The notes beneath the pieces were generated by a model, which saw only the letters and a program-made list of their open reading frames with translations, did not search any database and had not been told where the DNA came from. A stretch of 64,000 nt of DNA, from the NCBI GenBank assembly GCA_964106645.2, contig OZ067043.1, one strand, 5' to 3'. Source of the DNA: Podarcis pityusensis (Eukaryota). Positions 6,970-9,329 of this stretch are shown piece by piece (position 1 is the stretch's first letter; the number at the start of each line of letters is the position of its first letter). The position numbers and the translations under genes were made by a program.

Positions 6970-9021
6970 AATTACTGTAATTTAAATAGAAGCGCAAGGT
7001 GTGGGAAGACCTTGAGGAGGGGATATGTGTCTGCTGACCAGGTGCAAACTGTGGATGGGGAATCTTCAAAGCCCCTGTTGTTTTCCCTTATTAGGGTTTC
7101 TTATCTTTAAATTGAACATGAACTGCCCAGCCTTTCAGACTGAGAAAGTAGGATATACATTCACCTGAGACCAGCTGTAACATGAGGAGGGTAGTTTAGA
7201 AGTGGCCCTCCTCACATTTCCATCCAAGTGTAGTTTTCTCTCTCCATCACACTGAAAGACTACTTCCGTTAACTTCTGGTAAATCTGAACCAGGGAAAAT
7301 CAGGCTGTGGGAGGCACCAAAGAGATTGTGTGTGTGTGTGTCCCCAATACACTTCCAGCCCCTCAAGCCTCTGGAGCAATTTTGCAATTAACATACAACG
7401 AACGAATGAACACATACATGTCCATGTGCCACTTGAAAAAGAAAGAAGGGAAAGATGCGTAGTCTATCTGATGCAATGCAAAGGTAGGCAAGGCCGACAA
7501 CTGAACCAGCGTTCAATTTGCTGGTGTGTATACCTGTCACTCAGATTGCACAGCCGGGCTCACATGGTGCATGAAGAACCAACTGTCGCTGCTTTTCAAA
7601 TGCCATGTCTGTCTTCATCCACAATGCACTTGCTTTGTTTTCAACTCTTTCCCTTCCCTTCCCACCACTATTTTGAGTTCCTTGGAATGGAAGAACCAGA
7701 GCCGTCTTTCCTATTGGGCTTACTGGCATGTTGCACCAGGGTGCTGGCCTCTCAGGGGCGCCCCAGCAAGTGGGGGAGCTGCATGACTTTGCCGGTGGCC
7801 TCCCCTTTCCCTGCATGCCCACCAGCTGTGCCCCGTCAACCATATGGCTGGCGGGGGTGCAGCTTCCTACCCAAGCCTCCGTGGGAGGAGAGCGATCCCT
7901 GCAGAAGCTTGGGGAAAGGTCAACAACTCTGGGAAAGGGGGGGACACTGGAGGGATCTTTGAACCATGGCACTGGATATGCTTAAGCCCTGGGAAGAACA
8001 CAGGAAGTCAGGCCATGGGCCGCTTAGTTCAGTACTGTCCACACAGGCTGGCAGCAGCTCTCCAGGGTTTCAGGCAGGAGATATTCCTAGCTGTACCTGG
8101 AAAATTGAGCTATGGTGCTTCCTCTGACTATTCCACCATCTCCTAAATCCTAAGGCTTTGATCCTCAGATGAGCCACACTTCTATTGTGTGAAACAGAAC
8201 TGTAGATCAGTGGCTACAGAGATCCCTTCTCTTCCCAGACCAACATAGTATTTATTGATAGCAAACATAGGAATTGCTTTGCTGGATCAGGTCAAATTTT
8301 GTCTAGGCAAGTATTTTCCAGAAGCCAGCTTATGTCAAAAGAGAAGCTTATGATGCTGATTATTTGACAAGTATTCTCAGCTGATCTTACAAATTGGCCC
8401 TTAGATTTATTGAGCAGAGGTGAATAGAGCATAGAATAACACTACCAAAAGCCGAAAACTGGCATAAGGCAACATCACACACACACACATCTATTAGGTT
8501 AGCACCAAACCTTATGATTGCCCCAGTGCAAATGTTTAGGACTGGGGTGTATTGCTTTCTTTCTCCATCCTTTTCTTCCTTAAACAAAGAACTGCCATTC
8601 AATTAAATGCACAGTAATTACCATGTGGGAAAGCTTTATACTTTATGTTCAAATGCGCTATCTTGATGAATGATGCCATTAAGATCCAGCATCCCTTGCA
8701 TCAGCTTCCTTTCCAACACTGCCCCTAAAAGTCTAACAAATTTACTCAAATGCTAATAAGCAAAACCACACTGTTTATAGGGGTGGGAAGGCAGGGTGAA
8801 GGAGTGGAGTCAAGGGTTTAATACATTGTTTTAATTCATTTAAGAGTTACTAGTAACCTCTCTGTCCTTTGGTTTGAACTTCAGCTAAAGGACATTGCAG
8901 TATTGCAGCTTATGCACAACAGCTAACACAAGCCTATGCCTATCAATTGCAGTCTTAAAGGAAGGGCCAATAGACCATTAATACAATATTTTCAGCAATA
9001 TTCCTAACATTTAAGGCTTGT

Positions 9022-9229
9022 CAAAATAAATAAAAAATTGTCCAGTAGCATCTTAGAGACCAACTAAGTTTGTTCTGGGTATAAGCTTTCGTGTGCATGC
9101 ACACTTCTTCAGATACCCAGATGCACACGAAAGCTTATACCCAGAACAAACTTAGTTGGTCTCTAAGGTGCTACTGGACAATTTTTTATTTATTTTGACT
9201 GTGTCAGACCAACACGGCTACCTACCTGA
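9022..9229. mobile_element. Penelope-like element (PLE) pseudo-LTR remnant with inverted duplication
   Basis: 79-bp inverted arms 9020-9098 / 9121-9199 (1 mismatch); 13-bp direct repeat atttaaggcttgt at 9009-9021 and 9230-9242; 3' end gaccaacacggctacctacctg. Confidence 0.8.
9075..9120 (-). ncRNA. Minimal type I hammerhead ribozyme (PLE-associated)
   Basis: Minus strand reads ctgggta-t-CTGAAGA-a-gtgtg-catg-cacac-GAAA-gc-TTA-tacccag: core boxes CUGANGA and GAAA, stem I ctgggta/tacccag, stem II gtgtg/cacac, palindromic minimal stem III (AAGCTT), UH cleavage site. Confidence 0.78.
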
Positions 9230-9329
9230 ATTTAAGGCTTGTGTTTGCCAATATCAAAATTTAAAAATGAATTTATTTGTGGTGTGGGAAAGTGGATCAA
9301 AGTTTTTCTCCTTCATAATGCTCGGATAC

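Follow-up and report, generated by a model that had tools for sequence, protein, structure and literature searches.

A head-to-head Penelope-like stub in Podarcis pityusensis with an intact hammerhead core, likely an inert insertion scar

The hammerhead motif on the minus strand at 9120-9075 of the window, the whole 64,000-nt stretch of DNA analysed here, lies in a stub of a Penelope-like element (PLE) whose two arms are joined head to head. The stub keeps the catalytic core, lacks the likely promoter of its element and is predicted to be folded shut in read-through RNA. It is likely an inert insertion scar, and we put the probability of this reading at about 85%. The reading is built on the motif itself, the inverted arms, the target-site duplication (TSD), the link to an ORF with RT and GIY-YIG domains, the copy number and the junction bases that do not belong to the family. 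The motif is real but ordinary: the motif and the insertion type have both been described, and there are thousands of copies.

The hammerhead motif and the insert around it

The features of the locus are as follows.

9009..9021, no strand: left TSD, 13 bp, AT-rich, starting with ATT (longest direct repeat across both ends)
9020..9116, minus strand: arm A, element sense (alignment to the full-length element L126)
9075..9120, minus strand: minimal type I hammerhead (letters, folding, register analysis)
9112-9106, minus strand: CUGAAGA box of the hammerhead
9090-9087, minus strand: GAAA box of the hammerhead
9087-9084, minus strand: AGCU palindrome, which replaces helix III (duplex only -2.5 kcal/mol)
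9117..9120, minus strand: four junction bases, absent from the family sequence, which lengthen stem I from 4 to 8 bp
9121..9229, plus strand: arm B, element sense (alignment, palindrome, folding)
9230..9242, no strand: right TSD, 13 bp (longest direct repeat across both ends)

The initial annotation had assigned these letters to the minimal type I hammerheads of Penelope-like elements, with both boxes free of mutation. The quoted letters are present on the minus strand at 9120-9075, the class was named correctly and both boxes are intact. A 28-nt core pattern has one match in the 64-kb window and none in 100 shuffles. The isolated 46-mer folds at -17.9 kcal/mol (z = -4.8), and 0 of 200 shuffles were equally stable. 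Stem II has the 5 bp attributed to it (9104-9100 with 9095-9091). An extra base, A9105, stands between 9 and 10.1, and the G10.1-C11.1 pair is G9104-C9091.

Three details of the register need correction. Stem I is 8 bp long and not 7, because U9113 pairs with A9082; its strands are 9120-9113 and 9082-9075, and it adjoins C3 at 9112. In the register of PMC4209133, the palindrome available for dimer pairing is AGCU (A9087-G-C-U9084), not AAGCUU. The predicted cut follows CUU, between 9083 and 9082, and lies one base before the proposed cut after UUA; the U-H site is U9084-U9083, with U9083 as H17 in the numbering of PMC4209133. Helix III is absent, and the palindromic positions 15.2-16.2 are available for pairing in a dimer. 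The Rfam hammerhead models, which had been suggested as a check, gave no match at the gathering score over the whole window, and none at E<=10 on segments of 501 nt and 60 nt.

Stem II and its loop (9091-9104) form a perfect 14-nt palindrome. Its computed RNA-RNA pairing (-25.2 kcal/mol) is far stronger than that of AGCU (-2.5 kcal/mol). According to this calculation, such pairing could keep a dimer joined or, alternatively, trap it.

The insert spans 208 bp (9022-9229) and is bounded by the 13-bp TSD. The palindrome proposed earlier is real: its arms, 9020-9098 and 9121-9199, are 79 nt long and 99% complementary, with a 22-nt spacer. Arms A and B point outward from the junction between 9120 and 9121. 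Arm A begins 4 nt before C3, and its 3' end is short and tail-less, just before the position of the element's start codon. Arm B begins inside stem II, has no CUGA box and bears a 3' tail of ~35 nt; its minus-strand copy is the 79-nt partner of the 3' half of the hammerhead. Each arm contains sequence missing from the other. The marks of an insertion are thus present as an inverted 5'-truncated pLTR partner, one tail and a TSD. The stub has no ORF, and the ORF for RT and GIY-YIG is found only in the parent element. A tandem unit of the retrozyme type is absent, and the 64-kb window contains only one core. DNA contigs of organisms B and C (runs X6 and X7) enter the insert from both flanks, which excludes an assembly artefact. 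The insert is common to organism C, at about 1% divergence. A contig of organism D matches the locus only to 9030.

A second stub of the same family lies at 39649-39748 on the minus strand of the window, with a tail and an apparent 13-bp TSD. Its start is inside AGCU, 4 nt before the cut site, and it lacks a CUGA box.

The element family and its stems

The genome searched for cores amounts to 1.5 Gb. A 29-nt core has 3,216 exact copies (control 0), and a downstream 25-mer has 6,986 (control 0). The copy in the window, singled out by the initial annotation, is therefore not special: its core recurs identically 3,216 times, and an unmutated core is common to most young copies. Full-length members were found as L125 (G000:C1:40032500-40041500) and L126 (G000:C1:104629000-104635500). 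L126 has an open 910-aa ORF, whose ATG is 92 nt downstream of the core and which contains RVT_1 (E = 2.9e-12) together with a GIY-YIG domain (E = 3.7e-5) at the C-terminal end. The product, P0001, has a C-X4-C-XX-C linker after RT and ahead of GIY-YIG, and showed no relative among solved structures. Such a linker indicates Neptune or Nematis and not Poseidon, according to the available text of PMC8557442. The parent appears Neptune-like, an assignment made from the CX2-5CxxC linker only.

In both L125 and L126, the core is present in both pLTRs, ~3,010 nt apart and on the ORF strand. They contain tandem and inverted copies whose repeats are 99.8-100% identical, and the family looks young and recently active. 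The arms of the window copy are 85-90% identical to L126, which places it, on this alignment, in a sister subfamily. Since the hammerhead shares the strand of the ORF, the minus strand of the window is the element's sense strand, and not that of an antisense transcript as had been supposed. Just upstream of its core, L126 has an initiator-like TCAGT, preceded at ~30 nt by a TATA-like box. The window copy begins downstream of both promoter-like motifs and so probably lacks the element's promoter.

The first 100 cores on C1, 98 of them distinct, were taken as a sample. H17 is U in 60 of the 98 copies, C in 37 and G in one. The family stem I has 4 contiguous bp in 67 of the 98 copies and 7 bp at most. 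The 5' strand of stem I in the window is found in five of the 3,216 cores, and the family strand in 1,190. With so rare a 5' strand and a family stem of 4 bp, the earlier reading of the long stem I as the sign of a native intact ribozyme is not supported; on comparison of the copies, this stem is a product of the junction. The four junction bases exactly complement the 3' strand of stem I. Three of the five cores with this 5' strand stand in palindromes whose partner arm has the same 8-mer. The four bases may have been copied locally.

A further hammerhead family, older and decayed, in which stem II is longer and stem pairs are compensated, was also observed (L201, L207, L209, L212-L214, L216-L219 and L224-L227), and L185, L194, L215 and L221-L223 look like further families with the same core. 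Between the older and the young family, U-A is replaced by C-G in stem I and by G-C in stem II. In a 16-row alignment, which represents about two family-level events and in which 14 older rows were chosen by eye from 23, the stems are paired in 77.8% of cells versus 20-47% when slid. The covariation score of these 16 rows was reached by 5 of 500 shuffles, and related sequences can score so without structure. The measures other than the covariation score were not above shuffles. The core columns are fixed by the search pattern and thus carry no evidence of conservation. The listed variants of the young family are, by eye, nearly all single and uncompensated, as expected of neutral decay after insertion.

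Folding in context and the origin of the palindrome

In the isolated 46-mer, stems I and II form with computed probabilities of 0.98-0.99. With 10 nt of upstream sequence, the stem probability is about 0.85, and with at least 15 nt of the upstream arm it is 0.0 for both stems. An RNA with its 5' end within about 10 nt of 9120 is predicted to fold as a hammerhead, with stem probabilities of 0.84-0.99. Because minus-strand transcription makes the 79-nt partner arm first, the hammerhead is predicted to be buried in read-through RNA. This RNA is predicted to fold into a 79-bp hairpin (-146.7 kcal/mol), in which the partner arm would hide the GAAA box and the cut site, and the hammerhead fold costs 31 kcal/mol in the full context. 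The earlier proposal that this copy cuts a transcript crossing the locus is not supported by the folding model, given the complementary arm upstream and the loss of stem probability at 15 nt. As a local hairpin, stem II might still form for a short time during transcription. The plus strand has no CUGANGA box at the stub. No host gene was identified among 282 stop-to-stop frames, which cover most frames of at least 60 aa in the window and would miss short exons. Pfam gave four weak matches on these frames, one barely over the cut-off on 21 residues, and two weak matches examined further led to no host gene. A run guessed to be RNA (X1) contained only short or repeat-derived pieces, which speak neither for nor against expression.

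That this copy acts as a ribozyme on a minus-strand transcript, of the host or from read-through, with the 8-bp stem I as an aid, is very improbable. The intact core, the folding of the isolated 46-mer and the sharing of the insert with organism C speak for it. The 31 kcal/mol penalty stands against it, and there is no second same-strand core within the 64-kb window to serve as partner. When two molecules are folded together, the palindromic stem II regions pair (-52.8) rather than AGCU (about -36, additive). The site is CUU and not GUC, which the available text of PMC2238771 gives as the most efficient. As far as the available parts of the sources describe, single minimal hammerheads did not cleave as monomers (PMC4209133), and cleavage was absent without the element's protein (PMC11167929); cleavage as a dimer is attributed to Lunse et al. 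2017, as cited in the accessible part of PMC6765202. Activity at this locus is unlikely on these grounds, which are those of equilibrium folding. The stub could instead be a source of siRNA- or miRNA-like RNA from a long hairpin that silences the element family, the hammerhead being incidental. Both strands fold to about 79 bp (-142.3 kcal/mol for the plus strand), and about half of the sampled cores have an inverted partner. Such a role is nevertheless improbable, if less so than an active ribozyme: the Rfam miRNA matches are all far under their gathering scores and reflect the long hairpin, and the stub has no promoter.

The sister copies bear on how the palindrome arose. Family homology ends no more than 12 nt before C3 in 66 of the 98 cores, and 50 of the 98 have an inverted partner within 450 nt upstream. 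Among 98 arms picked by the downstream motif, with starts counted relative to C3 and ends set by an ungapped walk against one reference, so that single rows can be wrong, 32 begin at -8 to 0, four at +28 to +32 (around the cut site), 30 further upstream and 32 elsewhere. In a second sample of 50, 19 begin before the ribozyme and two at the cut site, both beside an unrelated inserted repeat. The putative start of transcription was placed by the motifs together with this pile-up of copy starts. Of 22 cases in which homology stops at -4, 12 have G as the next base (p = 0.014, tested against an assumed 0.30), a weak hint of a copied cap.

Cut-site starts were also considered as a sign of cleavage in vivo, and this was rejected as they show no excess (4/98 and 2/50). 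In L072, L161, L244, L248 and L254, an unrelated repeat abuts the TA beside the cut site and can mimic a cut-site start. Separately, 218 genome copies are truncated 4 nt before C3, and TTG precedes 86 of 100 among the matches listed, a tally not matched to subfamily. As a guess, TTG would consist of a cap-derived G and untemplated bases.

Among 39 head-to-head pairs, exactly one tail is present in 32, two tails in two and no tail in five. The arm whose 5' end is shorter bears the tail in 20 pairs, and the longer one does so in seven (p = 0.019), arm ends being set by an ungapped walk against one reference, with some rows wrong; a rougher BLAST count gave 12 and 6 among 30 pairs. The copy ends and the single tails suggest two primings on uncut RNA. 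According to the available text of PMC11167929, unprocessed RNA is the main substrate, in agreement with the start-site counts here, and two-strand nicking with two internal start sites is reported, in line with two primings. A literature search on Penelope and twin priming, covering titles and the start of abstracts, returned none on PLE palindromes; as subscription papers lie mostly outside this search, the idea may already be published.

Two primings have to be weighed against self-priming, that is, the fold-back of one cDNA or priming on an antisense template, with the extra stem I bases copied from the 3' strand of stem I. The exact complementarity of the junction bases and the shared 8-mer in three of five cores would be natural under self-priming, and the available part of PMC3846280 proposes it, in an antisense model, for Penelope palindromes of rotifers. 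Arms with mutually exclusive content, as in the window and in 20 of the 39 pairs, fit two separate primings better than the fold-back of one cDNA. No long fold-back of stem I is found among the 98 cores (7 bp at most), and there is only one case of a 14-bp stem I, in an enriched set of 48. Fold-back on stem I was also rejected as a general source of stem-I-like 5' extensions. Such extensions show no link with the 3' strand's subfamily (26/7 versus 7/3, p = 0.67, the same as the 66:17 background; of 48 rows, 43 were classed, and five with decayed or unrelated 3' strands were dropped). Self-priming is thus unlikely, although the least improbable of the three alternatives.

Under the preferred reading, an insertion of two cDNAs, the element's protein would have nicked both strands 13 bp apart. 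Uncut element RNA would have served as template for two cDNAs, the first primed at the tail end and the second at the short end. Arm A would have reached the likely 5' end of the RNA, 4 nt before the ribozyme, and arm B would have halted inside stem II. The cDNAs would then have been joined head to head with four filler bases, which by chance lengthened stem I. The ribozyme of the parent element probably works, if at all, as an AGCU dimer or with the element's protein. The extension of this scheme to the whole family is tentative, at somewhat less than even odds. It holds that the RNA is capped and starts only 4-7 nt ahead of the ribozyme, that it is copied twice without being cut, from two nicked strands and from the tail end and the short end in turn, and that the cDNAs are joined head to head, which seals the ribozyme. 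About half of the dispersed hammerheads would then be born muzzled, and the motif would not be needed to cut the template at insertion.

Comparison with known elements

The comparisons below are with the available text of each source. The minimal type I hammerheads of metazoan PLEs (Cervera and de la Pena 2014, PMC4209133) likewise have CUGANGA and GAAA, an extra base between 9 and 10.1, a G10.1-C11.1 pair, palindromic 15.2-16.2 without helix III and a location in the pLTR. They are reported in a turtle and in snakes, mostly as dispersed singles from truncated elements, as here. In contrast to them, stem II here has 5 bp and a palindromic loop, stem I has 8 bp in the window copy, and this copy lies enclosed within an inverted repeat of its own. 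The supplementary alignments of that study may already list this family.

Insertions of EN+ Penelope-like elements (Craig et al. 2021, PMC8557442; Arkhipova et al. 2013, PMC3846280) are described with an inverted 5'-truncated copy and an optional tail of 30-40 bp. Head-to-head inverted pLTR pieces, one tail and a TSD are found here as well, and the parent shares the TATA and initiator-like motifs of the pLTR and the CX2-5CxxC linker between RT and GIY-YIG. Unlike the elements described there, the window copy is minimal, with no ORF or promoter. Poseidon of Anolis carolinensis (Frangieh et al. 2024, PMC11167929) also has its hammerhead where pLTR and ORF meet, two 3' ends separated by the length of the tail and an AT-rich target with ATT, and cut RNA as template is unsupported there, as here. 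The two differ in that the Poseidon ORF begins at stem II and its clade has no Cys linker, whereas the element studied here has its ATG 92 nt after C3 and does contain the linker. Non-LTR retrozymes (bioRxiv 10.64898/2026.07.22.740005) are likewise non-coding, hammerhead-bearing and PLE-linked; they form tandem arrays with at least two complete hammerheads, in contrast to the single core and inverted stub of the window.

The locus itself is of little consequence, as one among thousands of such copies. It is a caution for ribozyme scans: a perfect-looking stem I may be a product of the junction, and the inverted repeat around an intact core may bury it. The family offers more than the copy, with young full-length members that have open ORFs and with thousands of stubs. 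The ends of these stubs bear on two questions of PLE biology: by what route the inverted repeats arise, and whether the RNA that serves as template is cut by the ribozyme.
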